DNA from: Minisyncoccia bacterium
GTDB lineage: Bacteria; Patescibacteriota; Minisyncoccia; Phycocordibacterales; Phycocordibacteraceae
Direction: 5' to 3'
Assembly: GCA_038207395.1 (NCBI GenBank)
Contig: JBBQZW010000002.1
Span: 309 to 64,308 of the forward strand
DNA length: 64,000 nucleotides
Below, piece after piece: positions 7,601 to 48,311 of the stretch. Every line of letters begins with the position of its first letter. The first letter of the stretch is position 1. The notes beneath the pieces were generated by a model. It did no database searches. It saw only the letters and a program-made list of their open reading frames with translations, and was not told the DNA's origin. Made by a program: the position numbers and the translations under genes.

Positions 7601-8386
7601 TTAAGGTGCGGCTGAGTAACTTGTCCAACGACGCTCCCCTGTTTTAACGACCTGCCCAGTATCTATGAGTGCTTGAAGCTCGCGCTGAATAGTTTTTTCA
7701 CTCACGTCTCGGATAAGCATTGATATATCTTTTATATAGGAAGGACCCTTCGATGTGAGTATTGAAAGTATGGCTTCACGACGATCCTGAGTCTTGTCTT
7801 TTATATGTCCTATAGATTGTCCTTTAGGATTTATTGCTGCTTTTTGTGCACGAGGACTTGGTACTCGAACTGGATCTGGAACGCGGGACTGATTTCCAAT
7901 CAAGCGCTCTGCTCCCACTTCTTTAGCGAGCGCAGCGAGCGAAGGTACCTCATCAAGAAAAAGACGAGGTTCTTCATAGGTGGCGATTTCCTGCAGGAGT
8001 TGCTGAGCCTCACGCGAGATTAGATCAGTGTTCATTGCTGATAGAAGTCCTCCGGTACGCGCTATCGACAAAACGCTTGAGAGAGCTAGAAGTTCGCGAG
8101 ACATGCTGTCACGCGCACTGAACGGAGGAAGTATCGCAGCCTCCACAAGCCCAACAGCAATACTATCCATCTTGTCGCGGAGAGCAGGTGCAGTGCGGAA
8201 CGCAGGTGAGACTAGATGAATCGCTTTTGCGAGTCGTTCTGCTTTTTTGTAGATATACACGCGACGTATGTCTTTTTCAAATATGTTTGAAAATATACTC
8301 TTTTCTAAGACAAAGTTATCAGATGCCGAACGAACGTCACTTCCTTTCGGATGAGAGAGTTCTTTATCGTGTCCTTTATTGTCCAT
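7601..8386 (-). CDS. Hypothetical protein with a C-terminal DeoR/HrcA-like winged HTH
   Basis: C-terminus ILSILTSKGPSYIKDISMLIRDVSEKTIQRELQALIDTGQVVKTGERRW matches the wHTH pattern. The N-terminal 190 aa are unassigned. Confidence 0.45.
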   Translation of the reverse strand: MDNKGHDKELSHPKGSDVRSASDNFVLEKSIFSNIFEKDIRRVYIYKKAERLAKAIHLVSPAFRTAPALRDKMDSIAVGLVEAAILPPFSARDSMSRELLALSSVLSIARTGGLLSAMNTDLISREAQQLLQEIATYEEPRLFLDEVPSLAALAKEVGAERLIGNQSRVPDPVRVPSPRAQKAAINPKGQSIGHIKDKTQDRREAILSILTSKGPSYIKDISMLIRDVSEKTIQRELQALIDTGQVVKTGERRWTSYSAAP

Positions 8387-8538
8387 AAGAATGTATATAA
8401 GACATAGTTACTGGTTAGGGACAGTATATACGCATACCAGTAATTGCAAAGGACACTTACTCGGGCCTGGTAGTACCACGTTCATACTCCCTCTCTGTTG
8501 ACGTACGTTTTGTGAGGAAATGCTAAAATAGGTAGGTA

Positions 8539-10770
8539 ATGGCAAAGCGAAAGTCGAAGAAGCGAGACGCAGAAAATATGGACGCGCTAGTTACCTGGGC
8601 TAGCGGTGTTTTATTAATTGCGCTTGGACTTATACTCGCGCTTGGCGCGGCAGGGTACGCTACAGGCAGTAACTTTGGAGGTGATATCGGTAACCTTATT
8701 TTTACCTATACCTATCAGGGATTGGGTATAGCCGCCTTCCTCTTACCGATAGGTGTTGCTGCTGCTGGTATCGGTGTTCTTATGAAAAGCAGTTTCAAAC
8801 CAACACTCACCAGTGTTGGTTTTACGCTCATACTGCTTTCAGCACTTACGTTCCTCGGTGCGGTCGACCCGAATATCGAAGGAGGTGTTGGTCCCGGGGG
8901 TTTAGCAGGAACATGGGCAGGACTTGAGGCAATTCATCTCTTTGGATTTGCCGGAGCAGTCATACTTTTAAGTGCGCTTATATTAGTAGGCCTTGGTCTC
9001 GTAACTGACATACAGACTCTCTTCGCTCAGATTGGAGCGGTGGGCAGTAGAGCCGGTGAGGCACTTACCTCCATTAAGCTTCCTTCACGAAGTAAGGTGG
9101 AAGATAGCGATGAGGAAGATGCTGAAGAAGAACCTGTTGAAATTCCAGCTACAGGATCTGTTGAGACTACAGACGTTCCTGAGCGTGAACCTACCGTTAC
9201 CCATTTCAATGAAAACATTGCAACTGGAGGAATAGCACCCGGCGCTATTCCAAGTTTTGATGCTGAATATAACCCTCCTCCCCTTTCACTTCTTGGTGTT
9301 GATAAAGGAAAACCTGGAGTTGGTGATATTAAGGCAAATGCAAATATCATAAAGCGCACCTTTATTAACTTTGGTATTTCTGTGGAGATGGATGAAGTAT
9401 CTGTCGGACCAACAGTTACCCGCTACGCCATCAAACCTGCTGAAGGTGTCCGTCTTTCAAAGATAGTTGCCCTTCAGCAGAATCTTGAGCTTGCCCTTGC
9501 TGCGCATCCTGTTCGTATTGAAGCTCCTATTCCCGGTAAGTCGCTAGTAGGTATTGAGGTACCAAATGCATCAAAGGCAATGGTCGGTCTTGGTGGCATT
9601 ATGAATGCTCCTGAGTGGAATACGAGCACGAAGCCGCTCCTTGCCGCTATTGGGCGTGATATTGCCGGAACTCCTCATTACGTGAACGTTGCGAAGATGC
9701 CTCATGGTCTTATCGCAGGCGCTACAGGTTCTGGAAAGTCCGTTGCTATCCATGCAGTTATCGCTTCCCTCTTGTATCGAAATGGTCCAAATGCCCTTCG
9801 TTTTATTATGGTTGATCCTAAACGCGTTGAACTTACCCTTTATAACGGCATTCCTCATCTCCTTACGCCTGTAATTACGGATCCTAAAAAAGCCATCATG
9901 TCTCTCAAATGGGCAGCAAAAGAAATGGATCGCCGTTACGGCATCCTTGAAGGTGAACAGGTTCGCGATATTGATTCGTACCATAAAACGGTACTTGAGC
10001 CGGCAAAGAAGAAAGCTGAAAAGAATCCAGGGCTTGAGATTCCAGAAGCACTCCCCTACATCGTTATCGTTATCGATGAGCTCGCTGATATCATGCAGAC
10101 CTTCCCCCGTGAACTTGAAGCAGCTATCGTCCGCCTCGCACAGATGTCACGCGCTGTGGGTATTCACCTCATTCTTTCTACCCAACGTCCGTCCGTGAAC
10201 GTTATTACCGGTCTCATTAAAGCGAACGTTCCGACCCGTCTTGCCCTACAGGTTTCTTCTCAGATTGATTCACGTACTATTTTGGACACCGGTGGTGCTG
10301 AACAGCTTCTTGGTGCTGGTGACATGCTCTACATGAGCGCAGATATGCAAAAGCCGGTACGTGTCCAGACTGCATTTATTTCAGAAAGTGAGGTTAAAAA
10401 GGTTGCTCAATATATTAAGCAAAACAATGCAGGTAACCTCACCTCTATGGACCTCACGGGAGGTGCTGTGGCCGTACATGAGAATAACGACGCCGTGATG
10501 CTTGGTTCTGGTATGCAGGACATGATGGATGACGACAGCGATGATGACCTCTACATGGAAGCAAAGTCAGCGGTAGAGGAGGCTGGACGCGCTTCAACGT
10601 CCTATCTCCAGCGTAAGCTTCGTATCGGATACTCTCGTGCTGCCCGTCTTATGGATATCCTCGAAGAAAAAGGTGTTATTGGTCCTGCAGACGGATCCCG
10701 TCCCCGTGAAATCCTCAGCCAGGGTGGCTCTGGTGGAAGTGCTCCAGATACAGAAGAAGAGGATCTGTAG
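8539..10770 (+). CDS. ftsK: DNA translocase FtsK/SpoIIIE
   Basis: N-terminal TM region, Walker A GATGSGKSVAIHAVIASLL, DELAD Walker B and a C-terminal gamma (wHTH) domain YLQRKLRIGYSRAARLMDILEEKGVIGP. Confidence 0.9.
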   Translation: MAKRKSKKRDAENMDALVTWASGVLLIALGLILALGAAGYATGSNFGGDIGNLIFTYTYQGLGIAAFLLPIGVAAAGIGVLMKSSFKPTLTSVGFTLILLSALTFLGAVDPNIEGGVGPGGLAGTWAGLEAIHLFGFAGAVILLSALILVGLGLVTDIQTLFAQIGAVGSRAGEALTSIKLPSRSKVEDSDEEDAEEEPVEIPATGSVETTDVPEREPTVTHFNENIATGGIAPGAIPSFDAEYNPPPLSLLGVDKGKPGVGDIKANANIIKRTFINFGISVEMDEVSVGPTVTRYAIKPAEGVRLSKIVALQQNLELALAAHPVRIEAPIPGKSLVGIEVPNASKAMVGLGGIMNAPEWNTSTKPLLAAIGRDIAGTPHYVNVAKMPHGLIAGATGSGKSVAIHAVIASLLYRNGPNALRFIMVDPKRVELTLYNGIPHLLTPVITDPKKAIMSLKWAAKEMDRRYGILEGEQVRDIDSYHKTVLEPAKKKAEKNPGLEIPEALPYIVIVIDELADIMQTFPRELEAAIVRLAQMSRAVGIHLILSTQRPSVNVITGLIKANVPTRLALQVSSQIDSRTILDTGGAEQLLGAGDMLYMSADMQKPVRVQTAFISESEVKKVAQYIKQNNAGNLTSMDLTGGAVAVHENNDAVMLGSGMQDMMDDDSDDDLYMEAKSAVEEAGRASTSYLQRKLRIGYSRAARLMDILEEKGVIGPADGSRPREILSQGGSGGSAPDTEEEDL

Positions 10771-10776
10771 CCCCTT

Positions 10777-11100
10777 ATGAGCCTTACGACCCGCGCAATA
10801 AGCATATTCCTCCTACTCCTCGTGCTCTCCTATGGCTTTGTGAAGGCACTTCCCCTCCTACGAGGACCCAGTATCAGCATCTCAAGCATAACGACCAACG
10901 AAGTAGGCTTAACGCTTCTTTCAGGAACGGCAGCTCATACTGAAAAACTGTCTCTAAATGGAGGCACGCAATTGATTGATAGCGAGGGTCATTTCTCGAC
11001 CCAGCTGATGCTTCCCCGCGGAGGCGCTATACTTAGCCTAACGGCAACCGACCGCTTTGGGCGCAGCCGAACGCTTGAGCGGACCGTGATTACCCCGTAA
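10777..11100 (+). CDS. Small membrane-anchored hypothetical protein
   Basis: 107 aa ORF with an N-terminal hydrophobic anchor, [15 protein letters not shown]. It starts 7 nt after the ftsK stop. Confidence 0.35.
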
Positions 11101-11123
11101 TTTATCATTTTAGATCTCGTTAT

Positions 11124-12239
11124 ATGCCAGCAAAGAAAGTCGCAAAGTTCTCAAAAAAGAAAAGCACCTCTACCCCCGAAGAAGAAATGGGTATGGAAGC
11201 TGATGTAGATATTGATGCCGAAGATACTCCGAAAGGTCCTAAGGATACTGACGCTGAGGCTCGCAGAAAATCTATCGAGCTTGCGATAAAGGAAATCAAA
11301 ACAAAATTCGGTGATGAAGCAATAATGACGTACGGCTCGACGAAACCGTCAGCTATTGAATCCATCCCAACCGGCTCTATCGGTCTTGATGCCGCACTTG
11401 GTATCGGCGGACTTCCCCGTGGACGTATCATTGAAATATTTGGCCCGGAGTCTTCAGGTAAGACAACCCTTGCCTTGCACTCTATTGCAGAGGCGCAGAA
11501 GAAAGGTGGAGTATGTGCGTTTGTGGATGCTGAGCACGCGCTTGATCCTGAGTATGCACGAAAGATTGGGGTGAAGCTCGGAGAGCTTCTTATCTCACAG
11601 CCTGACACCGGAGAACAAGCGCTTGAGATTGTTGAATCTCTTGTCCGTGCAAACTCCGTAGACATCATTGTTGTGGACTCGGTCGCAGCACTCACACCAA
11701 AAGATGAGATCGAAGGCGACATGGGAGCACACCACGTGGGTAAGCAGGCGCGTCTCATGAGCCAGGCACTTCGAAAGCTGACCGCCATCACGGCAAAGTC
11801 AAAGACGACCGTTATTTTCATTAACCAGATCCGCATGCAGATTGGCGTGATGTTTGGTAACCCAGAAACAACTCCCGGTGGTAAGGCACTTAAGTTCTAT
11901 ACGTCTGTTCGTCTTGATATACGCCGTATCGCGCAGATTAAGAAGGGTGAGGAGATTGTGGGAGGACGCGTTCGTGTGAAGGTTGTTAAGAACAAAGTGG
12001 CCGCTCCATTCAAGACCACTGAGTTTGATCTTATGTACAACGAAGGTATTTCCCGAGAAGGTGAGATCATCGCACTCGGTGAGAAGTATGACATTGTGAC
12101 AAAGTCAGGCTCAAGCTACAGCTATGGTGAACAGAAGCTCGGCCGTGGGTATGACGCAACGCGCACGTTCCTTCGTGAGAATAAACCTATCGCAACAGAG
12201 ATTCTGAAGAAGATTCGGGTTGAGTTGGATAAGGCGTAA
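11124..12239 (+). CDS. recA: Recombinase A, with an acidic N-terminal extension of about 40 aa
   Basis: [54 protein letters not shown] and the rest of the protein are canonical RecA. Confidence 0.95.
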
Positions 12240-12244
12240 ATAGT

Positions 12245-12384
12245 AAAAACAAAAACACTCCGTTTGCGAGAGCGCTCCGGGCCACCCCAAGGGTACTTCC
12301 AAATTACTAAGTCACTACGTTCTTAAGTAATTTGGGGTGCGCTAGGCCCGGGTCTTACTCTCGCAAACGGAGTGTTTTTGTTTT
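12245..12384. terminator. 140 nt quasi-palindrome with a perfect 27 bp outer stem and nested inner stems, a probable bidirectional terminator between recA and the anti-sigma gene
   Basis: aaaaacaaaaacactccgtttgcgagag (12245-12272) is exactly complementary to ctctcgcaaacggagtgtttttgtttt (12358-12384). Inner pairs ccgggcc/ggcccgg, accccaa/ttggggt and ccaaattactaag/cttaagtaatttgg are also present. Confidence 0.55.
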
Positions 12385-12392
12385 CCCGTATC

Positions 12393-12731
12393 TTACGTGG
12401 TGAGTCGAGAGAGAGGTTTAATCCTGACTAGACGAACTACTTCACACAGAAACCAAAATATAGCGACAAAGACAAGAAGTATGAGTATCTGAACAATGAA
12501 ATGAGTGTGTGAAAAAGCTGAAAGTCCAAATCGGATAACGCCAGGAATATCTGTACTGCTTGGCATATTTTGAAACACCCGTGCAACCCATACTTCCCTA
12601 CCAATTACATATAGTGCGGCGATAAGTGTTAGTACTGAAATACCTATCCCGGTTGCAGAGGTGCGGAGCGCATGAATGGTGCGAATGCGCTGCATTACTA
12701 TTTCTTGGATACGTGAATTATTCATAATCAT
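12393..12731 (-). CDS. Small single-pass membrane protein, a candidate anti-sigma factor
   Basis: 112 aa ORF with one TM helix, overlapping the stop of the upstream ECF sigma gene by 14 nt (translational coupling). Confidence 0.4.
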   Translation of the reverse strand: MIMNNSRIQEIVMQRIRTIHALRTSATGIGISVLTLIAALYVIGREVWVARVFQNMPSSTDIPGVIRFGLSAFSHTHFIVQILILLVFVAIFWFLCEVVRLVRIKPLSRLTT

Positions 12732-13320
12732 GAGTAGAGTGAGTCATTGCTTCTTTTGCTATTTTCTTTGCTCGGAACACCCGCGTCTTTATGGCCGGTA
12801 CCGTCGCACCTTCCAGAAGCGCAATTTCTTCCTGCGTCTTACCTTCAAGAAACTGAAGCCGTAAAAGGCGTGCGCACGATTCAGGGACTCGGGATAACAC
12901 ATTAAGGACTTCATTTCGAATTGATAATTCGTCCAGAAATGATTCAGTATCCGGGAGTCGTTCAAATGCTTCGGACTCTAAGGCGAGCATACGTCCATTG
13001 TCCCTCTTTAACTTCTGATATCGGGTGAAGCAAAGACGGGTGAGAATAGTATAGGCCCATGAAGAAAATTGTGCCCCTGACTGTGCCTCATATTTATCTG
13101 CATAGAGATATATACGGGTAAACGTGTCTTGGACCACTTCTTGAGCATCCTCATGGGAACGCAGGATGTGCTTGGCACGACGAAGGAATGGGGATTCATA
13201 TCGTTCTACGAGAATAGCGAAGGCATCTGGGAGATCTTTGGACGCGAAAAGGACCTCCTCATCGGGGGCGTCTTTCAGAGTCTCGAGCGATTTTGAATAC
13301 CGCATTACGTCTTGTATCAT
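12718..13320 (-). CDS. RNA polymerase sigma-70 family factor, ECF subfamily
   Basis: Region 2 VVQDTFTRIYLYADKYEAQSGAQFSSWAYTI and region 4 LQFLEGKTQEEIALLEGATVPAIKTRVFRAKKIAKEAM. Confidence 0.8.
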   Translation of the reverse strand: MIQDVMRYSKSLETLKDAPDEEVLFASKDLPDAFAILVERYESPFLRRAKHILRSHEDAQEVVQDTFTRIYLYADKYEAQSGAQFSSWAYTILTRLCFTRYQKLKRDNGRMLALESEAFERLPDTESFLDELSIRNEVLNVLSRVPESCARLLRLQFLEGKTQEEIALLEGATVPAIKTRVFRAKKIAKEAMTHSTHDYE

Positions 13321-13416
13321 ACCCCAGTCGGCTTAGTACCCATATCAGGGTACTAGCTATAACCTCCGGCATCTCGCATTCGTTTCAATTATTCCTCTTT
13401 TCAGTATCATTCCCCT

Positions 13417-13992
13417 ATGGCAATCCTTTCCTATAACGAAATAACACAGAAGAAAGTCATTGAGTACAACAATGAACCATACGAAGTACTTTCTTCGCAC
13501 GTCTTTCGTATGCAGCAGCGCAAACCAGTGAATCAGACAAAACTACGTCATTTAGTGTCTGGCAAAGTAACCGAAATTTCATTCCACCAAAGCGAAACGG
13601 TTCCAGAAGCAGACATTAGTAAGATGCAGGCGCAGTACCTGTATACGAACCGCGGAGAGTCCTGGTTCGCTGAAGAAGGTAACGCGAAGAATCGGTTCGC
13701 CTTTCCTGAAGCAGATGTCTCAGACAAAGTGAAGTGGCTAAAGATTGGATCGACCGTCGAGGTAATGCTTTACAAGGACAATCCTGCAACTATCGATATT
13801 CCGATCAAAATTGAACTTACGGTTACAGAAGCTCCTCCAGGAATTAAGGGCGACACCGCAACTGGCGGAAATAAGCTCGTGAAGCTTGAATCAGGAGCAG
13901 GAGTTCTAACTCCCCTCTTCATAAACGAAGGTGATGTTATTCGTATCAATAGCGATACAGGTGAATACGTGGAGCGAGTGAACAAAGCGTAG
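13417..13992 (+). CDS. efp: Elongation factor P
   Basis: 191 aa with three-domain EF-P architecture. The KPG motif region reads VFRMQQRKPVNQTKLRHLVSGKV. Confidence 0.9.
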   Translation: MAILSYNEITQKKVIEYNNEPYEVLSSHVFRMQQRKPVNQTKLRHLVSGKVTEISFHQSETVPEADISKMQAQYLYTNRGESWFAEEGNAKNRFAFPEADVSDKVKWLKIGSTVEVMLYKDNPATIDIPIKIELTVTEAPPGIKGDTATGGNKLVKLESGAGVLTPLFINEGDVIRINSDTGEYVERVNKA

Positions 13993-16376: not shown

Positions 16377-17813
16377 TTACGCCAAACGAGGGAATAAATT
16401 CTCTGGCTTCTTATTCTCCCGTACTGCAGCAAATATTTGTTCGCTCGTTGTTGGCATACAGGGAGCAAGGTGAAGTGCAATCTTTGCAACATGCTTCACG
16501 AGTTTTGCGATGTCTTCTTTTCCCTGCTCTTTTGTTGCTTCTTCCTTAACCGCCTTGTATGGCGCACGCTCTGTCATAAATTCGTCGCCGCGCGCAATCT
16601 GTTCCCAGATTATGTCAGCAACTTCGGTAAAGGCGAACGTGTTCATGTGCTTAGTAAGCTGAACGTCTATGAGTATATCTTCAGGGCCGAGCACTACGGG
16701 TTTCTCAAGATGTTCTTCAGCAAGTTTCATAACACGCGCCACCAAATTACCGAGACCGTTCACGAGATTAGCCGTATACCATTCATCCAAGCGCTCCCAG
16801 GTGATATCTGAGTCGTCTGTTGGGTGCGCATGCCTAATGAGCAGATAGCGTGTTGCATCCATACCGTATTTCTCAATGAGCTCATACGGACTAATGACAT
16901 TGCCTATCGACTTACTCATCTTCTGTCCGCCTGAGTTAATAAAGCCGTGATAGAACACTTGATCGGTGGTTTTAATATCAGCAGACATCAGCATGGCTTG
17001 CCAAATAAGTGACTGGAACCGTACCTGGTCTTTCCCCGCCACCTGCACCACACGCCCATCTGTCCAGAATTTCGTAAAGTTTCCTTCTGGATCCTTGGGC
17101 CAGCCGAGTGTTGAAATGTAATTAGTCAGCGCATCAAACCACACGTACATGACTTGAGAATCATCACCGGGGACTGGAACACCCCAACTCATACGCGCAA
17201 CCTCACGCGAAATACTAAAATCCTCAAGGCCATTTTGAACAAAATGTAATGCTTCCTTTCGGCGAAACTCTGGCACTATCACCGATTCCTGTGAAAGATA
17301 TGCTATGAGTTTTTCTTGGTACGCCGAAAACTTAAAGAAATAGTTCTCTTCTTCGATACTCACCAAGTCCTGATTCGGGTGATTTGGACAGCGACCATTA
17401 ACGAGATCTGTTTCTTTAACAAACATCTCATCACCCACACAGTACAAACCAGTGTATTTCTTCTTATAGATATCCCCCGCTGCTTCACAGCGTTTCCATA
17501 GTTCTTGCGCAGCTGCGGTATGGGCTGGATCAGTGGTACGAATGAAGTGATCGTACGAAAGTCCGAGCGCTTCGCCGAGCTTCTTAAACTCAGCCGCATA
17601 GTGATCCACATATTCCTGCACATCTTTCCCTTCTGACTCAGCTTTTTGAAAGATCTTCTGTCCGTGTTCATCGGTACCGGTGCTGAAAAACACCTCGTCA
17701 CCTTCAAGGCGCCAGGTGCGCGCTAATACATCTGCCTGAAGAAATTCAAGCGCATGTCCTATGTGCGGATCAGCATTAACGTATGGAAGAGTCGTTGTTA
17801 GATACCGGTTCAT
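16377..17813 (-). CDS. metG: Methionyl-tRNA synthetase, short form without a C-terminal tRNA-binding domain
   Basis: HIGH motif in YVNADPHIGHALEFLQADVLARTWRL and KMSKS in GQKMSKSIGN. At 478 aa it is a minimal MetRS. Confidence 0.9.
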   Translation of the reverse strand: MNRYLTTTLPYVNADPHIGHALEFLQADVLARTWRLEGDEVFFSTGTDEHGQKIFQKAESEGKDVQEYVDHYAAEFKKLGEALGLSYDHFIRTTDPAHTAAAQELWKRCEAAGDIYKKKYTGLYCVGDEMFVKETDLVNGRCPNHPNQDLVSIEEENYFFKFSAYQEKLIAYLSQESVIVPEFRRKEALHFVQNGLEDFSISREVARMSWGVPVPGDDSQVMYVWFDALTNYISTLGWPKDPEGNFTKFWTDGRVVQVAGKDQVRFQSLIWQAMLMSADIKTTDQVFYHGFINSGGQKMSKSIGNVISPYELIEKYGMDATRYLLIRHAHPTDDSDITWERLDEWYTANLVNGLGNLVARVMKLAEEHLEKPVVLGPEDILIDVQLTKHMNTFAFTEVADIIWEQIARGDEFMTERAPYKAVKEEATKEQGKEDIAKLVKHVAKIALHLAPCMPTTSEQIFAAVRENKKPENLFPRLA

Positions 17814-18966: not shown

Positions 18967-20361
18967 CTACGAAAGAGCGCTCCTAATCTTCTCCATAACT
19001 TCTGCAACGGTAAGGCGCTCCTGCTCTCCCGTATCGCGGTGGCGGATGGTTACGGTGTCTTTTAATTCTGGTGTCTCTCCGAGGGTATCGAAATCAATCG
19101 TGATACAGAACGGCGTACCAATCTCATCCTGTCGACGATACCGCTTCCCAATATTTCCGTTGTCGTCCCAAGCAATAGCGGGATGTATTTTCTGAAGCTC
19201 TTTACGAATTTCTTTCGCTTTCTCAACGAGCTCCGGTTTGTTTTTTAAGAGCGGTGAGACCATTGCTTTTATCGGCGCAACTCTTGGATCAAGGGCAAGA
19301 TACGTACGCTTCTCTCCCCCAAGGTCATCTTCGCGATACGCTGACGCAAGCACGGCTAGGAGTGTACGCCCAACTCCGAATGACGGTTCGATAACATGCG
19401 GGAGAAACTTCTCTCCTGATGCTTCATCCATATATTCAAGCTTTTGACTTGAGCCCGTTTGGTGTGCGTTAAGATCAAAGTCTGTGCGGTATGCGAGTCC
19501 CCAGAGCTCTCTGGTACCAAACGGAAAATCAAACTCAAAATCAATAGTTCGCATTGAGTAGTGTGCACGATCTTCTGCAGATATTTCTACTTCGTGGAGA
19601 TGTTCTACCGGAAGTCCAATCTGCTGGGAATATGCATGAATCGCCTTCCGCCATTCCTCGAAGGCACGTTCCCAATCATTCGGGTGTACAAAATACTCCA
19701 CCTCCATCTGTTCAAGTTCGCGAACGCGGAATACAAATTCACGCGGTGCTATTTCATTACGGAAAGCCTTTCCAATTTGTCCCATACCAAACGGGAGCTT
19801 CGGGTGAAATGCGTCAACAATATTCTTAAAGTTCACAAACATACCGCCTGCTGTTTCGGGACGAAGGTATACGGTTGAGTCCGCTCCTTCAACCGAGCCG
19901 ACGCTCGTACGAAACATCATATTGAATTGCTGAACATCAGAGAGCGGATTCTTTTCAGGACTCATTATTCCCTTCTCCTTTATTGCAGTACTCATCTGCT
20001 CCGGCGTCATACCTAACGGATTCACTCCCGCCTCTTCTAGAAGATGATCAGCGCGGTATCGTTTATTGGTTTTTATATCCACCACAAGCGGGTCAGAGAA
20101 GCCAGCAACGTGCCCTGATGCTTCCCATGCTTTTGGATTCATGAGGATTGCCGCATCAATCCCGTACATGTCGTCGCGTGTTTCGACGAACATGCGCCAC
20201 CATAGCGCTTCAATGTTTTTCTTCAGCGCAAGACCATGAGGACCATAGTCAAAGGTGCCGGAAAGCCCTCCATATATTTCAGAGCCAGGAAAGATAAAAC
20301 CACGGCGTTTACAGAGCGAGACGATCTGCTCAAGGGTTACGGGAGTCTGTTCTTCATTCAT
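18967..20361 (-). CDS. glyQS: Glycyl-tRNA synthetase, alpha2 (archaeal/eukaryotic-like) type
   Basis: IFPGSEIYGGLSGTFDYGPHG, class II motifs and a C-terminal anticodon-binding domain. Confidence 0.85.
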   Translation of the reverse strand: MNEEQTPVTLEQIVSLCKRRGFIFPGSEIYGGLSGTFDYGPHGLALKKNIEALWWRMFVETRDDMYGIDAAILMNPKAWEASGHVAGFSDPLVVDIKTNKRYRADHLLEEAGVNPLGMTPEQMSTAIKEKGIMSPEKNPLSDVQQFNMMFRTSVGSVEGADSTVYLRPETAGGMFVNFKNIVDAFHPKLPFGMGQIGKAFRNEIAPREFVFRVRELEQMEVEYFVHPNDWERAFEEWRKAIHAYSQQIGLPVEHLHEVEISAEDRAHYSMRTIDFEFDFPFGTRELWGLAYRTDFDLNAHQTGSSQKLEYMDEASGEKFLPHVIEPSFGVGRTLLAVLASAYREDDLGGEKRTYLALDPRVAPIKAMVSPLLKNKPELVEKAKEIRKELQKIHPAIAWDDNGNIGKRYRRQDEIGTPFCITIDFDTLGETPELKDTVTIRHRDTGEQERLTVAEVMEKIRSALS

Positions 20362-22267: not shown

Positions 22268-22846
22268 TTACAATCCTGATTCACTAATTCCGTGATTAAT
22301 TCGAGCGATGAGTTTTGTGCGGTCAGCGGAAGCACGCGCAAGCGCGCTTCCGGGCGTACCGGAACTATAGTCATCAGCAGCGCCATACGTATCTCCTGCA
22401 TCTACTCCAAGCACATGAAGCATCCTAAGGACGGCGAGCATTTCTGCTGCATCCTGTTCTTCTTCGGAACGTCCAGGTAAAGCACTAAGGAAAGAAGAAA
22501 GTAATAAAAAGAGTTCTGGGTCGGCATGCTCGCCCCGAATAAGACGGTCTGCAAGTTCCATGACACGGGCGGCGCGCTTGCGCGCCGCCCTATCTAACTC
22601 ACGTGCCCAGTTCGTTTCCAACACTGCTCCTGCCATACGCCACACTTCTTTTCCCCGCAATAGCGTCACGTCAGACGCTGAAAGCGTTTGCATGCCGGCA
22701 CTCATCTTTGCACTTCCCTTTCGAGCTCCTTGTGAACGCGCTCGTATAAGACCGAAGTCTTCAGTCAGTAATGATGCCGTAATACTTTCTTCACCCGAAG
22801 GTGTTCGAGCGAGGACAAGTGCACGTGTTGAATACTTATGCCTCAT
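22268..22846 (-). CDS. recO: DNA repair protein RecO, short form
   Basis: N-terminal OB fold RALVLARTPSGEESITASLLTEDFGLIRARSQGARKG matches the RecO pattern (A.VL..R..GE.....L.T...G.......GAR). Confidence 0.55.
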   Translation of the reverse strand: MRHKYSTRALVLARTPSGEESITASLLTEDFGLIRARSQGARKGSAKMSAGMQTLSASDVTLLRGKEVWRMAGAVLETNWARELDRAARKRAARVMELADRLIRGEHADPELFLLLSSFLSALPGRSEEEQDAAEMLAVLRMLHVLGVDAGDTYGAADDYSSGTPGSALARASADRTKLIARINHGISESGL

Positions 22847-22860
22847 TGCAAAGATTCTCG

Positions 22861-25800
22861 TTATGTACGGATCAAAGAGAATCGTACCGGACCGGTGGAA
22901 AGTTCTGCGATATATACACCGTCTTCACGTCGATCAACCGTCACGCGATCACGAGGTGAGAGATCTTCACTCTTTCGCGCTTCAGCCACTGCGCGCGCAA
23001 ACGCGCGTTCATCACCTTCAACGATAAGCTCCGGAGTAAGTATCGTGTCGATAGAAACCGATTCAGCTCCCGTCTTCACCTCTTTAACATTCACTTCTTC
23101 CATAAGAATTCCAGCGAGCGCCGAAGAGAGTTCACCTGGAATTGAAAGTGACGCAAGCGGCTGGCGCACTTTCATGTCTGCTTTTTGACGAAGCATTAGT
23201 GCTTCAGAGGCAAGCTCACGCACACGCTTCATATCCTCGATCAGCTGCTCGTCTGAGTCCCCACCTTCCGGCCAGCTCATTAGATGAACGCTTTCTGCAT
23301 CATGTTCATCACGAAATATTTGGAACATATCTTCTGCAAGGAAAGGCGAAAATGGTGCGAGCATGAGCGCACTTTTCATAAGGGTTTCGCGAAGCGTGGT
23401 GAGTGCAGCAGCATCACCGTCACGTGCACGATCACGAATACGGCGTACGTACCACTGAGAAAGATCTTCGAACAAACCGGCAAGAGAGCGCGTTGCGTCA
23501 TACGGACGATACCCGTCCATATGTTCCGTAACACTCAGCACTGTTTCGTTTGTACGCGCCTGCATCCATAGATCAATTGGCTGGTATTCGAGCGGTTCCT
23601 CACCCCCTTCCTGCTGTCCGTCTTTAAAGAGGGCGAAGAATTTTACACTGTTCTCAAACCAGGAAAGTGCACGGGCAGACTCGCGAACAGTTTTCACATC
23701 AAAATTCTTTGAATCCCCTGGCTGATTAACGCTATACATCCAGAATCGGAGTGTGTCAGCTCCCCACTCATCTATCGCTTCCCACGGATTAATGACATTG
23801 CCTTTCGACTTACTCATTTTCTTCCCTTCAGCATCCAAAAGATGTCCCAGAGAAATAACGTTCTTATAGGGTGCGCCTTTACCGGTAAGTACGCCAATGG
23901 CGAGGAGTGTATAGAACCACCCGCGTGTCTGGTCTATCGCTTCAGAAATATAGTCGGCAGGATATCCTGGACCATCCACCCACTCTTTGTTTTCAAATGG
24001 ATAGTGATCTTGCGCAAACGGCATTGAGCCTGAGTCAAACCACACATCCATTACTTCCGAAACGCGGCGAAGCTCAGTTCCAGCGTCACTCAAAAGCACT
24101 ACCTCATCAATAAACGGACGATGTAGATCTAGCTCATATTTTTCATTGTGCGGAAGTGGTGCAAATTCAAATTCAAGCACTCCAGCAAATGGAAGGCTAG
24201 TATGCGTCAATAACATTGACTCGGCACTCGTAGCGCCTAGCGCGACCGCCGGAACAACTTCTGAGGCAACACCGTGACTAACAATGAGGATTCGTTCATT
24301 CGTTATCGTTCGTTCAATCTCATACAGGAAGTCACCGAAACGGTTCTTTGCCATCTGATAACTTTCTCCGTCAGGAAAGGAATGGTCATACGGGTGACTA
24401 TCTCGATACGCTATGTATTCGTCGAGTGTTCCCTCTCCATAAAAAGAACCGAAATTAAGTTCACGAAGACGGTCATCGTATGTAATAGCGGAATGATCAA
24501 TGCCGAGTTCATCTGCTACGAGTTTTGCGGTCTGTGTTGTTCGTTCAAAGGGCGATGCAAAAATACGAGTTACCTTTTTTTCTTTTAACGCTTCCGCGGA
24601 TACCTGTACCTGAGTCCGGCCTGTTTCAGTAAGACTAAATCTTTTTTCATTTTTGCAGTCGAGGAAATTTCGTATATTATTCTCTGCCTCTCCGTGACGC
24701 ATTAGGAAATACGTATTCCCGCTTTTTGGTATACGTGCTTTTAGTTCATCGACAGATCCAATAACAATCCGTTCTCCGGTATCTTTGTTCTCCCACACCG
24801 GAAGCGGCGTGCCCCAATATCGTTCACGAGAGACGGCCCACTCTTTCGCACCTGCGAGCCACTCGCCCATACGCCCTTCCTGGATGTATCCCGGCTCCCA
24901 ATGAATCTTTTTGTTTTCTGCTACAAGTGTATCTCGTAAATCATGCATGCGGATGAACCACGAATCACGCGCGTAGTATATGAGTCGGTTCTTACTTCGC
25001 CAACAGTGCGGGTATGAATGGGTGTACGACTCCTTTGAAAATACTGCATTCTTTGCCTGCAAATCTTTAAGAATTTCAACATTAGTGTCAGGACTGACTA
25101 CCGACATTCCTTCAAACATACCGGTGCCGGGGAGAAACGTTCCATCCGGTGCCACCAAATGTACTTTTGGAAGTCCAACCTTTTGCCCTAATTCAAAGTC
25201 ATCCTGGCCATACATAACGGCCGTGTGCACGATACCCGTACCATCTTCAGTCGTTACAAAGTCAGCAGCGTGCACCGTATATGCTGTCTCGAACTTTGAC
25301 TGCTCAGTTTCCGAAGCAAGCTGTTGAGCGAATGGATAGAGTGGGGTGTATTCGGTTCCCACCAAATCTTTTCCAAGGTATGTGTCACCAGTAAGATACG
25401 CCTCTCCTTCGAAGTTAAAAAGTTTGGTCACGAGATTTTGCGCAACAATATACTTTTCACTTCCCTTAAGAACTTTTACATATTCAATATCCTTCCCGAC
25501 TGCGAGCGCGATGTTTCCAGGAAGCGTCCAAGGAGTCGTAGTCCATGCGAGGAAGTATGTGCCTGGTTCGTCAGCAAGTTCAAACTTTGCCGTGATCGTA
25601 AGATCTTTGACGTCTTCGTATCCTTGAGCAAGCTCATGGCTCGAAAGCGCGGTACCGCAGACCGGACACCACGGAAGAACTTTGTAGTCTTTATACAAAC
25701 GATCGTCGTCAGAAATACCCTTTAAAATATTCCACACAGACTCCATGAACTTCGGATCAAACGTAAAATACGCTTTGTCTTGATCAACCCAATACCCAAT

Positions 25801-26217
25801 GCGGTCCGTGAACTGCTGCCATTCGTTTACATACGTAAATACACTCTCTCTACATTTCGCATTAAATTCAGCGATGCCATATGCCTCAATATCTTTCTTT
25901 CCTGAAAAGCCAAGCTGCTTCTCTACTTCAAGCTCCACCGGAAGACCATGCGTGTCCCACCCAGCTCTGCGAGGCACATGATATCCACGCATTGTTTTAT
26001 AGCGCGGAAGTGCATCTTTAAAGGCACGGGACTCGAGGTGATGAACACCCGGACGTCCGTTTGCCGTTGGAGGACCTTCATAAAATACGAATTCACCGCT
26101 CGGCGATTCTTTCTGAAGACTTTTCTCAAAAATGGTGTTCTCCTTCCAAAAGGCTAAAATGCGTTCCTCACGCACCGAGGCGTCAGATTTTTTCGGGGTC
26201 TTTTCAGATTCGCTCAT
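22861..26217 (-). CDS. ileS: Isoleucyl-tRNA synthetase carrying an in-frame histidine-phosphatase (PGAM-like) domain insertion
   Basis: HIGH-like [12 protein letters not shown], the editing domain, [16 protein letters not shown] and DVWFDSGS motifs. An inserted segment (aa about 500-690) bears RHGE and LIVSHGV motifs. Confidence 0.9.
24148..24717 (-). other. Inserted histidine phosphatase / phosphoglycerate-mutase-like domain inside ileS
   Basis: [12 protein letters not shown] (the RHG catalytic His) ... [14 protein letters not shown] ... ILIVSHGV (second catalytic His). It lies between the Ile[10 protein letters not shown] and DVWFDSGS segments. Confidence 0.7.
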
Positions 26218-26656
26218 AATATAGCCATCCTACCGCTCCTGAGCACAAAAGAAAAACCCGACGCGCATGGAGCGCGCCGGGTCAGGCGAATGTGCTGAAA
26301 TGAAATCAGCGATGCGAAGGAATGGGCGAACCATTGAAGCCGCTGAAAAATGCGAGGAGTGCTTTGCGCGCCCGCTGCGTCAGCGACTTTCTTCCCTTGA
26401 ACTTCGAGTAGGCACTGCGTGCCTCACGCGCGATTCCCTTTCGGTTTCCGAAAGTGGCTTGAAATGCTCGCTGGAACAGACGTTCCGCGCTGCAGCGCAA
26501 GTGGGTGCAGACCTCATTGATCTGCGTTTGGATTCCTTTTCGTGCCAAGGTACCGTCTCCCTGTAACATTTGCCACTTTATTGCGACAAGAGCTACCATA
26601 CCTCGCCCCTACCTAACACGCAAGTGAGTTATGCAGTCCCCTACTCTTTTGATTCA
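26218..26656 (-). promoter_or_regulatory. Structured GC-rich ileS 5' leader of about 400 nt that ends in an intrinsic terminator (26245-26280) just upstream of the ileS RBS. It is a candidate attenuator, T-box-like riboswitch or ncRNA.
   Basis: No credible ORF. Multiple short GC hairpins are present. The terminal hairpin CCCGGCGCGC-uccau-GCGCGUCGGG is followed by UUUUUCUUUU, then AGGAUGG (SD) and AUG. Confidence 0.5.
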
Positions 26657-28333
26657 CTACATTCGCTCCGGCGCAGGAATACCCAAAAGCCACAAACCGT
26701 TTTGCATCGTATGTATAAATGATTGCACTAGAGCAAGTTTCACCGCTTCATCTTCTGAACCAATGATGCGTTCGTTTGCATAGAAAGAATTCCATTCACT
26801 CGCAAGCTGAATGAGGTACGTCGCAATGATGTGCGGGCCAGAAAGTTCCTGGGCTTTTGTAACTACACCCGGGAAGCGAGTGATGAGACGCGCAAGTGCC
26901 GAAGGAGCAAGCGCATCTGAAAGCTCAGGCGTTACTTCCGATTTCTCCAGAATGGTACGGGCGCGTACGAGCGCGTACTGAAGATACGGCCCTGAGTCCC
27001 CCTCAAGAGCGAGGGACTTTTCTGGATCGAAAACAATACTTCCTCCTGGTGCACTTCGAAGAATCATATATTTAAGTGCTCCCACAGCCACCTGTTGTGC
27101 GACTACGGGATCACTATTCCGTTCAGTGGCGCGCTCTAGCACTTCGGTTAGTAATTCACGCGCAGTGATTACATTTCCTTTTCGTGACGACATTTTCCCC
27201 GTGGTAAGTGTTAGAAGGCCGTGAGAAATATGACTCATCTTCGCCGCTACCAAAGGAGCAATCTCAGAGAGTGCTGAAAGAAATACTTTAAAGTGACCTG
27301 TCTGCTCTGATCCGGTTTCAATAATGATTGCGTCAGTCTCAATTCGTTCTTCTTTATAAAAGGCGAGACCTATATCTTTAGCTTCGTACGTGGGGGTGCC
27401 GCGTGAAGTAATGAAGACAAGGGTGTGGAGACCTTTTTTCTCTCCTGAGTAAATTACTGCTCCTTCGCTTTCTTCGAATACCCCTTTTGCAAGTCCATCC
27501 TTTACCACGGTCACTCCAGTAGCAGTCACTTCACTTTCAAAAAAGTAGTAGTCAAAGTTTGTATCTAATGTTCGATATATTTCACGGAACGACTCCAACG
27601 CAAGATCGCGTCCCTTACGCCATAGTTCAAGCAGCATTCGTTCTTCATCAGTATGGTCTCCAGATACCTTATCCAGTGCCTTGTAGAGTTCAACGTTCAA
27701 TACATCAATTTCCTGCTTAGCTTTTTCTGACTCTTCATATGCGTTTGCGCCGTGCGTGTAGGCTTCCCCTATCTCGCGGGAAGTTGCGGGCTCGGTGATA
27801 TTTTTTTCTCGCAATGCCCAAAGTGCTTTTGCCACATGAGGACCCACGTCTCCTCCGTAACTATCGCGCAGAACGTGCGCACCTGAATATTCCGTAATAC
27901 GAGCAACGGACTCCCCAATAACCGTACTGAGCAAATGACCAATGTGCATTTCTTTAAACGGATTAGGACAGGAGTATTCAATCATTACTCGTTTCCCTGC
28001 TTGTGCGTCATTTTTTCCCCATAGTTCTGGAGCGCTCACTGCATCATTGAGAATATTTGAAAGCACATACGCGGATAGCGTGATGTTCACGAACCCTGGT
28101 CCCGCAACTTCTATGCGCGAAGCATCTTCACCAAGCGCATTTATAAGCGCGGTCTGCAGTACTTCCGCAATTTCATGCGGAGGCTTTCCTAGCTGTTTGC
28201 TTGCAGCAAGCGCCGCATTCACAGCGAAATCGCCGTGCGTCATATCAGCCGGCCACTCCACCGCAAATGAGATATCCTTAGCTCCCATCTGCGAAAGTGC
28301 TTGTTCAACAGCATTTCGAATCTTCTCTTCCAT
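26657..28333 (-). CDS. argS: Arginyl-tRNA synthetase
   Basis: HIGH variant in MHIGHLLSTVIGESVARI, with ArgRS N-terminal and DALR anticodon-binding domains. Confidence 0.9.
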   Translation of the reverse strand: MEEKIRNAVEQALSQMGAKDISFAVEWPADMTHGDFAVNAALAASKQLGKPPHEIAEVLQTALINALGEDASRIEVAGPGFVNITLSAYVLSNILNDAVSAPELWGKNDAQAGKRVMIEYSCPNPFKEMHIGHLLSTVIGESVARITEYSGAHVLRDSYGGDVGPHVAKALWALREKNITEPATSREIGEAYTHGANAYEESEKAKQEIDVLNVELYKALDKVSGDHTDEERMLLELWRKGRDLALESFREIYRTLDTNFDYYFFESEVTATGVTVVKDGLAKGVFEESEGAVIYSGEKKGLHTLVFITSRGTPTYEAKDIGLAFYKEERIETDAIIIETGSEQTGHFKVFLSALSEIAPLVAAKMSHISHGLLTLTTGKMSSRKGNVITARELLTEVLERATERNSDPVVAQQVAVGALKYMILRSAPGGSIVFDPEKSLALEGDSGPYLQYALVRARTILEKSEVTPELSDALAPSALARLITRFPGVVTKAQELSGPHIIATYLIQLASEWNSFYANERIIGSEDEAVKLALVQSFIHTMQNGLWLLGIPAPERM

Positions 28334-45422: not shown

Positions 45423-46552
45423 ATCGGATACTTATTCATAACTTCTATAAATTTAGCTTCCGTTTCAGGCGTAATTGCAGCGAAGAAGGGGGTCATGTTG
45501 TTGTCGAGTCCTGTGTCTGCAATATAGTGCTCCCGTGCGTAGTCCAAGTGCTTTTGAGTAAAAGTCTCATTACCCTTAAAACCAAAGTAATTTTTTAGTT
45601 GTGCCATCCGCTCGGTTATCTCCTCGGGCTTCTGTAGATAGTTTGCAAATCGGTTCTGGGGGTCTTCTGTGACAGCTACATTCTGGAGTTCTCTTAGAAC
45701 ATCGAGATCGAGAACAGATTGAATCTCAGTCGCGTCAGATCCTTGAAAATCCCGCATACCGTGTCCTTTCTCGTGAGCTTCAATAATCATTTTTTGCCGC
45801 ACAGTGAGAGGTCCACTCTCGCGCGACTCGCCATCAGAAAATACGACACCAGGCTCACCGATATTTCCCATGCCCGCGTTTGTGGGCTTCTTTCCGTATT
45901 CAGCCGCATTGCCTATCTGGGTATGGCTAAATATAGAATCGATATTCTTGTCGTAATTCTCAATCTGGCTTTCGTAGTGTGAGCGAAATTTCTTCGGCTT
46001 ATCGTAGAGCCCCACAGTCCCTTCTTTTAAAGAAGATAAAGCTTCTAATCTAGTGTCAAAAAACTTCTGCTTGATAGCTGGATCCCCTAACCTCTCCTGA
46101 AGCACTAATGTCCAGTGGCCTGGATAGTTTGCTTGCGAGCGAATAACTTCTGCTTCAAGCGCGTCTATATCAAAAGACTCTTGAGTTAAATCTTGATCAG
46201 AATTCAACCCTAATGACTCACGCACTTGAGACAGTTTTCCCCTAGAAGTCTCTTCTTTTAGCGAGGCCTCAAGCTTAGCTTCTGCCGCGGTTCTGTTGCT
46301 TTGATAAGCATTGATAGATTCCATTTCTGAACTCCTTTCTGGAGAAGGGTCACTCTGGTCTAAGTCCTCTAGACCATCTTTTTGTTTTTCCTCAGCAGGA
46401 AGGGGGCGGGGAGGATTCTCATTCATATTAGTAATTATAGCTTGAGACGTGAACTCGGGTGTAAGGTTCCCAACAACCCCTCCTGGACTCCCAGGACACT
46501 CTGCGTCATCCATTAGACCGTTATCAATAACGGCACAATATGGAAACAGCAA
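45419..46552 (-). CDS. Hypothetical protein with an HExxH motif (possible metallopeptidase-like), translationally coupled to the ABC exporter
   Basis: 377 aa [16 protein letters not shown] contains HExxH. The acidic N-terminal half is low-complexity. Its stop overlaps the ABC gene start (atga). Confidence 0.45.
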
Positions 46553-48195: not shown

Positions 48196-48239
48196 TTTTT
48201 ATGAGGCCTCACGGTCGTTATTAAGGCCGCTGACTGCTG

Positions 48240-48311
48240 TGCCCTCACCTGGAATCGAACCAAGATCAAGAGCTTAGAAGTCTCCTGCTCTATCCATTGA
48301 GCTATGAGGGC
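48240..48311 (-). tRNA. tRNA-Arg (anticodon TCT), no encoded CCA
   Basis: Hand-folded: acceptor GCCCTCA/TGAGGGC, D-loop AATGGATA, anticodon loop CTTCTAA, T-loop TTCGATT. There is one A31-G39 mismatch in the anticodon stem. Confidence 0.7.

Follow-up and report, generated by a model that had tools for sequence, protein, structure and literature searches.

A histidine-phosphatase domain nested in the CP3 region of a type-2 isoleucyl-tRNA synthetase from Minisyncoccia

We analysed a stretch of 64,000 nucleotides (the window) from a Minisyncoccia bacterium (contig JBBQZW010000002.1), in which ileS, the gene for isoleucyl-tRNA synthetase (IleRS), carries within its reading frame a complete histidine-phosphatase domain. 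That this is a real nested domain is virtually certain, and the conservation of its catalytic residues makes it very probable that the domain is enzymatically active. We give about an even chance to the reading that the protein is bifunctional, a normal IleRS joined to an autonomous accessory phosphomonoesterase that acts on a small phosphomonoester metabolite or a nucleotide and is not a cis-acting partner of the synthetase.

The initial annotation described a single uninterrupted ileS reading frame of 1118 codons, with an insertion of 190–200 residues between two conserved synthetase segments. This open reading frame (ORF) was recovered as described (Table 1), and the four quoted motifs were located in the expected order, with WGTPLPVW at aa 468-475, YFLMRHGE at aa 503-510 (24688-24711), LIVSHGV at aa 644-650 (24268-24288) and finally DVWFDSGS. 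The interval originally assigned to the extra domain, 24148-24717, corresponds to aa 501-690, and the insert measures approximately 197 residues. In the Pfam search, His_Phos_1 (PF00300) matched aa 504-666 (E 2.3e-30, 106.2 bits against a cut-off of 21.7), where a match at about aa 500-690 had been anticipated, and tRNA-synt_1 was split into two stretches around it (E 7e-119) with Anticodon_1 following. A hidden Markov model (HMM) of the family matched aa 503-699 of a frame-extended ORF bearing four additional N-terminal residues, equivalent to aa 499-695 of the protein. When aligned with solved type-2 enzymes (IleRS2), the insert (query 494/499 to 695) mapped between residues 482/488 of Thermus thermophilus 1ILE and 475/485 of Priestia megaterium 8C8W, hence about 197 residues stand in place of a CP3 loop of 5-9 residues. 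The reading frame, the split Pfam match and the structure alignment together confirm a true in-frame domain insertion in one gene that is absent from canonical IleRS, as had been proposed. The GC content of the insert dips slightly (0.43-0.46 compared with 0.47-0.50), and no mobile-element signature was detected in the DNA, where flanking repeats are short and at chance level and the shift in composition is minor.

Structure prediction bears out the proposed histidine-phosphatase fold. Modelled alone with AlphaFold2, the domain gave a predicted local distance difference test score (pLDDT) of 91.4 and a predicted template modelling score (pTM) of 0.88, as would be expected of the independently folded module that had been suggested. 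In the full-length model (pLDDT 81.9, pTM 0.72) the phosphatase is the most confident region, and blocks of 10 residues over aa 501-690 have mean pLDDT values of 82-96, mostly 87-96. A Foldseek comparison of the predicted model with the PDB returned 298 matches at E <= 0.001, and the top 50 listed hits were all members of the superfamily, with a probability of 1.0. The top match was the phosphoserine phosphatase PspA (4IJ6; E 2e-13, template modelling (TM) score 0.77), and TIGAR was another leading match, as were the riboflavin-pathway HFP (9MMH), glucosyl-3-phosphoglycerate phosphatase (GpgP), CobC, Rv3214 and PhoE (TM 0.70-0.77 for these five and PspA). A sequence search of the PDB agreed with Foldseek.

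The initial annotation regarded the domain as apparently catalytically intact, and all five residues expected of the active site (R507, H508, R559, E586 and H648) are indeed present and kept across relatives, the sole exchange being E586 to D in 4/120 homologues. N514 is nearly invariant among the same 120 sequences, like G509 and G649. The five residues are likewise intact in 80/80 species genomes, in which the remainder of the domain drifts, and mean column conservation among the 120 homologues is 0.60 for the insert compared with 0.79 and 0.75 for the IleRS parts. Against what we take to be the sequence of Escherichia coli GpmA, R507, H508, N514, R559 and E586 align with R10, H11, N17, R62 and E89, and G509 with G12.

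The description of the domain as PGAM-like held in so far as it belongs to the histidine-phosphatase family, but the mutase type was not supported. The insert contains GES, LTxxG and SPxxR motifs, and V or I follows (S/T)HG where cofactor-dependent phosphoglycerate mutase (dPGM) has the asparagine N186. The residues that we presume to be R90, Y92 and K100 of GpmA are replaced by L, F and L, and neither the long cap (R116/R117) nor the C-terminal tail has an aligned counterpart. All dPGM profiles fell below their cut-offs (archaeal NF038349, 75 versus 225 bits; NF010713, 29 versus 305; TIGR01258, 28 versus 82), as did the equivalog models for CobC (TIGR03162, 78 versus 163), PspA (NF045917, 63 versus 350) and SixA (TIGR00249, 38.9 versus 74.5). 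The third-best NCBIfam match of the insert was NF005567, a bifunctional RNase H/His_Phos protein (73 bits against a cut-off of 326). The domain gave no match in PADLOC, and its sole PHROG match was to a family annotated as of unknown function. On its predicted fold and its motifs, the domain is a short-cap, phosphatase-type member of branch 1, of the PhoE/PspA/CobC/GpgP type. Conservation is low in the cap region (aa 590-616).

The insertion had been placed in the connective region of a class I aminoacyl-tRNA synthetase (aaRS); the class is correct, and the generic region can be narrowed to CP3. In yeast (Sc) and Candida (Ca) IleRS, the CP3 subdomain follows the CP2 helices and precedes the second half of the Rossmann fold (Sc 459-526, Ca 473-534; PMC7955072, PMC7191050). 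Residue 493 of the query was aligned to Sc residue 489, and therefore the phosphatase sits in the middle of CP3. It begins 30 residues past a linker homologous to the CP2-3 linker of yeast IleRS (453-ARDWNVSRNRYWG-465), which helps to build the pocket for the tRNA CCA end (PMC7955072), and it ends 28 residues ahead of DVWFDSGS. At the C-terminal junction, PLPHN is specific to insert-bearing IleRS, while LDLHRP is the canonical IleRS2 sequence (cf. 'FDPHRPYVD' in T. thermophilus), and the pattern phi-P-x-N...(L/F)HRP(Y/F)ID recurs in insert-bearing IleRSs with only about 36-50% host identity. The cysteines of the CP3 zinc knuckle, which the IleRS2 of T. thermophilus and of P. megaterium has as CxxC...CxC, are missing at aa 476-483 and 708-715 (about 24070-24790). 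All four are absent in 111/111 close homologues scored, and both Cys pairs are kept in 12 distant insert-bearing IleRSs.

Outside the insert, the protein aligned along both IleRS halves with the closest PDB matches, the IleRS2 structures 8C8W and 1ILE (E about 1e-220), and the full-length sequence scored 842 bits against the ileS equivalog TIGR00392 (NCBIfam cut-off 621). The CP1 editing motifs TTTPWTLP and GTGIVH...DD are present and are invariant across 65 homologues. A weak score of 21.2 bits for DUF5915 (cut-off 27) was obtained at the C-terminus; many homologues carry this family (PF19302). From its sequence, the IleRS part is complete and canonical type 2, with Rossmann core, KMSKS loop, CP1 editing motifs and anticodon domain, and nothing in these features is a sign of impaired IleRS function. 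The class I signature is in the swapped GxHH form, which was found in 107/120 homologues (HxGH in 8/120) and in 62/66 species genomes having the HIGH-motif region within the locus. The swapped form has been described only in IleRS2, where it confers hyper-resistance to mupirocin with catalysis little reduced (bioRxiv 10.1101/2023.01.31.526100). Since GxHH is so widespread in this lineage and such resistance has been reported for the variant, its prevalence suggests long-standing inhibitor pressure on the lineage's IleRS. We rejected an identification with the acquired mupirocin-resistant enzymes MupA/MupB (NF000258, 703 versus 1900 bits; NF000257, 679 versus 1900), the likeness being that of any IleRS2.

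Table 1. Features of the ileS gene and its nested domain (window coordinates; aa, residues of the protein)
Feature	Position	Strand	Residues	Basis or remark
ileS ORF, type-2 IleRS with nested phosphatase	22861..26217	-	1118 aa	ATG start, no stop or frameshift; TIGR00392 and PDB matches
Class I signature, swapped (GxHH for HxGH)	26038..26049	-	G57-V-H-H60	Read from sequence
CP2-CP3 linker, 13 residues	24811..24849	-	aa 457-469	Homologous to yeast IleRS 453-ARDWNVSRNRYWG-465; alignment to 7D5C
Nested histidine-phosphatase (His_Phos_1) domain in CP3	24133..24723	-	aa 499-695	Pfam, family HMM, AlphaFold2, Foldseek
RHG motif, H508 predicted phospho-accepting nucleophile	24691..24699	-	R507-H508-G509	R and H in 120/120, G in 111/120
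Second phosphate-binding Arg (SPxxRTxxTA motif)	24541..24543	-	R559	120/120
Predicted general acid (RLRExxFG motif)	24460..24462	-	E586	116 E + 4 D of 120
Second catalytic His ((S/T)HG motif)	24271..24276	-	H648-G649	H in 120/120, G in 119/120
C-terminal junction back into CP3, 15 residues	24115..24159	-	aa 687-701	At least 90% conserved in 65 homologues
DVWFDSGS, start of second half of Rossmann (HUP) fold	24025..24048	-	aa 724-731	HUP limits from P. megaterium IleRS2
KMSKS loop	23806..23820	-	aa 800-804	Sequence; KMSKS in 120/120 homologues
Anticodon-binding domain, then putative type-2 C-terminal region	23155..23574	-	aa 882-1021	Pfam Anticodon_1, E 1.4e-23

The homologue check showed that the insertion is not peculiar to this genome, being fixed in Paceibacteria-type IleRS, recurring in valyl-tRNA synthetase (ValRS) and occurring as a fusion to TsaC. 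PF00300 is carried by 120/120 of the closest homologues (62-100% identity, 1107-1189 aa), drawn from NCBI, JGI, ENA and Logan assemblies; those that are named belong to Candidatus Paceibacterota, Parcubacteria or Patescibacteria. Taxon labels of metagenome-assembled genomes are coarse and sometimes wrong, and the nearest relative is labelled 'Bacillota'. When one genome of each GTDB species was scanned with a single protein query of 321 aa, at least 557 relatives were found, and the best 80 were examined. These span the whole query at 49-65% identity, and in every one the domain is nested in ileS at one and the same position; among the names in their titles are Paceibacterota, Kaiserbacteria, Vogelbacteria, Nomurabacteria, Zambryskibacteria and Minisyncoccia. 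With the insert alone as query, 1.84 billion cluster representatives yielded 620 hits below 1e-10, of which the best 150 were mostly complete or fragmentary IleRSs with the domain at the same site and synthetase parts 36-60% identical to the window protein. From these sequence comparisons the domain is fixed in the IleRS of the Paceibacteria type (Patescibacteria/Parcubacteria). Host and insert identities are correlated (r = 0.75 overall, 0.22-0.37 within subsets), and we infer one ancient insertion into IleRS followed by mostly vertical inheritance; because the correlation is weak within subsets, vertical inheritance is not demonstrated on a fine scale.

Some IleRSs have been elaborated further. 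Two tandem His_Phos domains occur in five of them (P0166, P0172, P0216, P0241 and P0192). In others His_Phos is accompanied by one or two GNAT domains. P0260, a 1561-aa IleRS (8001-12686 of locus L002), combines two GNAT domains with His_Phos on contigs of up to 2.1 Mb, and P0197, an IleRS of approximately 1560 aa, has GNAT, His_Phos and an IS200-type Y1 transposase-like segment, which lies within the editing region. GNATs are known immunity enzymes against inhibitors that mimic aminoacyl groups and target aaRSs (microcin C, tiarins).

A related domain was found in ValRS. P0270 is a full valS equivalog (948 bits against 704) with His_Phos at aa 577-752, and among its 120 closest ValRS relatives, with names of the Magasanikbacteria or Patescibacteria type, 32 carry the domain in a patchy distribution. 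In the genome of locus L001, whose ValRS (10001-13423) carries the phosphatase, two adjacent genes for cofactor-independent phosphoglycerate mutase (iPGM) lie beside those for enolase and phosphoglycerate kinase (PGK) (4817-7951 of L001). Three ValRS sites were distinguished: site A lies about 19 aa past DTWFSS; site B, where the domain ends about 20 aa short of DTWFSS, is equivalent to the IleRS site; and site C, past SPQWF, is occupied in P0134 by four tandem copies. Pairs of ValRSs with flanks of 94% and 88% identity are distinguished solely by a clean indel of approximately 180 aa, which points to recent gain or loss. In neighbour-joining trees, which are star-like and can be read only qualitatively, insert-bearing and insert-less hosts are interleaved, and the site-A domains form one clade with site-B domains in others. 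At the sequence level this pattern resembles the outcome of recurrent gain, loss or exchange of alleles. The tandem copies are 29-51% identical to each other, and R-H-...-R-E-H is kept in every copy complete enough to score, the fourth copy of P0134 being cut at the protein end of the fragment.

The domain also stands at the C-terminus of four clusters of TsaC, the threonylcarbamoyl-AMP synthase. The Patescibacteria TsaC proteins recovered with P0261 (P0404-P0520) mostly bear an MGMT-like domain (PF01035), others having TruB, 2H/cyclic phosphodiesterase, methylpurine glycosylase, NUDIX, GNAT or His_Phos. In one further protein His_Phos is joined to a sub-threshold match to an AlkB-like 2-oxoglutarate-Fe(II) oxygenase (27 bits against 31.2). 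Judged by these sequences, the joining of many small housekeeping enzymes to proteins of translation is plainly a habit of Patescibacteria. The neighbourhoods of the stand-alone homologues P0205, P0221, P0259 and P0214 were short or uninformative, and the TsaC-fusion contig spans 3.7 kb.

An autonomous accessory phosphomonoesterase is the most economical interpretation because the structural neighbours of the domain are all small-metabolite phosphatases, and such neighbours of the predicted model favour a small-molecule substrate. The fusion-prone character of the lineage counts for it as well, as seen in the varied partners of TsaC and in the GNAT and Y1-transposase-like inserts of other IleRSs. 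The IleRS part would charge tRNA-Ile by the usual two steps, with the phosphatase standing outside the chemistry of aminoacylation. By analogy with the chemistry of the family, H508 would attack a phosphate gripped by R507, R559 and H648, E586 would donate a proton to the leaving group, and the phospho-histidine would then be hydrolysed, giving a ping-pong removal of the terminal phosphoryl group. A single ancient insertion would have tethered this phosphatase permanently to IleRS in Paceibacteria-type Patescibacteria. The phosphatase appears dispensable for aminoacylation, since solved IleRS2 enzymes are without it, near-identical ValRSs occur with and without it, and the ValRS sites share no geometry. 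The initial annotation had suggested tRNA 2'/3'-phosphate ends, nucleotides or cofactors as possible substrates, which is speculative, and had raised the possibility that the domain couples translation to another pathway; such coupling is weakened because the structural neighbours suggest a small-molecule substrate and because the lineage fuses many unrelated enzymes to translation proteins.

Several observations weigh against an autonomous role. Catalysis is predicted from conserved residues and a modelled fold, and every curated equivalog model was missed, including those for CobC, PspA and archaeal dPGM. The poor conservation of the cap would be unusual for an enzyme of one specific small substrate. 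A related domain has entered ValRS independently, at three sites or more and in one to four intact tandem copies, and has been fused to TsaC; this repeated capture argues for a functional advantage of tethering to adenylate-forming, tRNA-handling enzymes over chance hitch-hiking. Furthermore, the IleRS linkers (KKSGN...PLPHN) are strongly conserved and confidently modelled, and together with an insertion site so close to the linker of the CCA pocket they would fit a fixed geometry with a role in cis.

Such a role is the alternative that we take most seriously, although we consider it possible rather than probable. Here the domain would be a phosphatase of RNA ends or nucleotides, forming a second CP1-like hydrolytic site that clears a 3'- or 2'-phosphate, or the 3'-pyrophosphate left by toxSAS/CapRel, from tRNA, or AMP or pyrophosphate at the synthetase; the 3'- or 2'-phosphate would be the remnant of 2',3'-cyclic-phosphate opening, removed ahead of charging. 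Its position in CP3, 30 residues past the linker that in yeast IleRS shapes the pocket for the CCA end, and the conserved and confidently modelled junctions are in accordance with this. So are the independent nesting of the same family at three sites in ValRS and its fusion to TsaC, all of these hosts being ATP-dependent adenylate formers that handle or bind tRNA, and the presence of 2H/cyclic-phosphodiesterase or NUDIX domains at the same TsaC position in other members. Divergent but intact tandem copies would suit a stepwise removal of phosphates, and NF005567 provides a precedent for a His_Phos domain joined to RNase H. Pyrophosphorylation of the 3'-CCA end, which blocks aminoacylation, is an established toxin mechanism and also counts for a role in cis (bioRxiv 10.1101/2021.04.30.441581; PMC11559606). 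On the other hand, the closest structures are all capped phosphatases of small metabolites, the TsaC partners include DNA-repair enzymes unrelated to tRNA, and the domain had no PADLOC match. Site A of ValRS lies in the alpha3-beta4 loop, which from Rossmann topology is presumably on the face opposite the active site, and therefore the inserts have no common geometry. To our knowledge, moreover, no histidine phosphatase acts on RNA 3' ends or pyrophosphate. A bolder form of the proposal, which we hold to be rather unlikely, is that the domain gives a class Ia synthetase a third active site that works in cis, healing tRNA ends that bear a 3'/2'-phosphate or a toxin-derived 3'-pyrophosphate, or clearing a phosphorylated inhibitor. 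If true, the mobile-looking insertions in IleRS, ValRS and TsaC would, together with the GNAT inserts and GxHH, mark an arms race over tRNA charging in episymbionts.

The remaining explanations account for less of the evidence. HipA/HipT-type toxin kinases phosphorylate the class I enzymes GluRS and TrpRS, and the histidine-phosphatase superfamily includes the protein phosphatases SixA, PGAM5 and Sts; the domain might thus protect its own synthetase by stripping inhibitory phosphorylation from it, for example from the KMSKS loop. A partial match to SixA (38.9 bits), insertion sites that flank the second Rossmann half about 75-100 residues before KMSKS, and the inhibitor pressure betrayed by GxHH in these IleRSs would agree with this. 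It is nevertheless improbable, as the SixA cut-off of 74.5 was missed, the cap resembles that of small-molecule enzymes, no kinase partner was seen in the 64-kb window and the fusion to TsaC is left unexplained; we know of no toxin that phosphorylates IleRS or ValRS. We see equally little likelihood in a catalytically dead or repurposed module, serving as a CP3 brace in place of the lost zinc knuckle or as a sensor of phosphate or another ligand that regulates IleRS allosterically. The junctions are rigid and conserved, and the four knuckle cysteines are absent from all 111 close homologues scored; but E586 (116 E and 4 D) and both His residues, which binding alone would not need, are retained, and a structural role would not account for the tandem copies or for the gain and loss in ValRS. 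Since the 12 distant insert-bearing IleRSs retain both Cys pairs, the domain is no simple substitute for the knuckle.

Whether the cell's own dPGM is embedded in IleRS as a replacement glycolytic enzyme was also considered. Weak profile matches (NF038349, 75 bits) and several phosphoglycerate mutase structures among the Foldseek hits point that way, but the equivalog cut-offs were widely missed (75 versus 225; 29 versus 305), the substrate residues, long cap, Asn of HGN and C-terminal tail are missing, and the genome with the phosphatase-bearing ValRS has two iPGM genes beside PGK and enolase. We consider this highly improbable, and dPGM identity was rejected on the missed profiles, the differing substrate residues and the two iPGM genes in that one ValRS-insert genome. 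An artefact, either an assembly chimera or a mis-joined gene pair, has a negligible probability: apart from the slight GC dip nothing speaks for it, and against it stand a continuous frame, IleRS sequence that resumes where the solved structures predict, and identical architecture and junction in 120/120 homologues and the 80/80 best species genomes. The chimera that the initial annotation had named as one way in which it could be wrong is rejected, the same architecture recurring in hundreds of independent assemblies.

We compared the protein with known systems. With IleRS2 (1ILE, 8C8U/8C8W) it shares a full-length alignment outside the insert, KMSKS, the CP1 editing motifs, the anticodon domain and the GxHH variant, but the solved enzymes have a CP3 loop of 5-9 aa and zinc-knuckle cysteines where the window IleRS has the phosphatase of approximately 197 aa and has lost the cysteines. 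The domain resembles PspA (4IJ5/4IJ6), PhoE (1H2E/1EBB), CobC (6E4B, 6NRU), GpgP Rv2419c (4QIH), Rv3214 (2A6P) and HFP (9MMH) in its predicted fold, its five catalytic residues and its length of about 190-200 aa; identity to these short-cap phosphatases is only 21-26%, however, and the window domain is nested, with the family-specific PLPHN junction. A curated precedent for an IleRS with an extra nested enzymatic domain is ileS_w_GNAT (NF040702), and P0260 and P0197 combine GNAT with His_Phos. The window protein, in contrast, has no GNAT Pfam hit and scores 299 bits against 1999, its insert being a phosphatase. CP1 is likewise a hydrolytic domain nested in the Rossmann fold of IleRS, ValRS and LeuRS and offers a conceptual model for an insert acting in cis, but it is universal, has another fold and takes the aminoacyl ester of tRNA as its substrate, whereas the phosphatase is lineage-specific and lies in CP3 (PMC7191050, PMC7955072). 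The RNase H/acid phosphatase of the Rv2228c type (NF005567) similarly joins a CobC/PhoE-like His_Phos domain covalently to a nucleic-acid enzyme, although by end-to-end fusion, not nesting, and with another partner; the window insert falls well short of its cut-off.

In our view the architecture adds one more nested catalytic domain to a synthetase and falls short of a categorically new system. A full-text literature search found no paper describing a histidine phosphatase nested in IleRS or ValRS, although absence there is no proof that none has been published, and a 2026 survey that covered 96,219 IleRS sequences and annotated their domains makes no mention of a phosphatase. The architecture has been publicly deposited at least since the Parcubacteria C7867 genomes, its Pfam domain recorded by automatic pipelines, and one JGI entry for ValRS bears the name 'valyl-tRNA synthetase/broad specificity phosphatase PhoE'. 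Bacterial aaRSs rarely have extra catalytic domains; CP1, the only universal example, reshaped the view of translation fidelity. In the present case a second, unrelated hydrolase is fixed in the IleRS of ultra-small symbionts, across at least 80 and probably several hundred species. Its fixation in IleRS and repeated entry into ValRS, where it occupies several sites and reaches four intact copies, imply selection for an active phosphatase on charging enzymes. A phosphatase acting on tRNA ends, nucleotides or inhibitors would add a new tier of quality control or defence to translation; an unrelated metabolic enzyme would still illustrate clearly how the nesting of domains can lead to gene fusion in streamlined genomes. 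There is also a warning for annotation, as 'isoleucyl-tRNA synthetase' or 'class I tRNA ligase family protein' is all that the names of such proteins say.

The gene lies in a housekeeping neighbourhood. It is preceded in the window by genes for TatD, MetRS (16377-17813), an AI-2E-family transporter, a class II aaRS (18967-20361), a DUF11 surface protein and RecO (22268-22846), and beyond it are ArgRS (26657-28333), SHMT and thymidylate synthase and, farther away, FtsK, PolA, type IV pilus genes and a large serine recombinase. Four aaRS genes, encoding MetRS, the class II enzyme (HGTP-type), IleRS and ArgRS, thus occupy one strand within 12 kb. The extra domain is confined to IleRS, the MetRS, ArgRS and class II aaRS of the window being without insert, and the family HMM detected no second His_Phos ORF in the 64 kb.

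Directly upstream of ileS, the argS-ileS spacer (26218-26656, minus strand) is 439 nt long and richer in GC (0.54). Its predicted folding energy is -174.9 kcal/mol compared with -145.9 +/- 5.3 kcal/mol for shuffled controls (z = -5.5), and it ends in a terminator-like hairpin of 12 bp with a U-run (26255-26283), 38 nt ahead of the start codon. No Rfam match was obtained at E <= 1 save a chance hit to a small RNA (sRNA), and no T-box motif was found in the spacer. Similarity in the last ~64-84 nt was seen in one related locus (L010) only. The spacer may be an unrecognised leader or attenuator, or a small RNA. Elsewhere in the window, the large serine recombinase (Resolvase, Recombinase and Zn-ribbon domains; 46540-47865, plus strand) lies near tRNA genes, with tRNA-Arg at 48239-48311, and could mark an integrated element.

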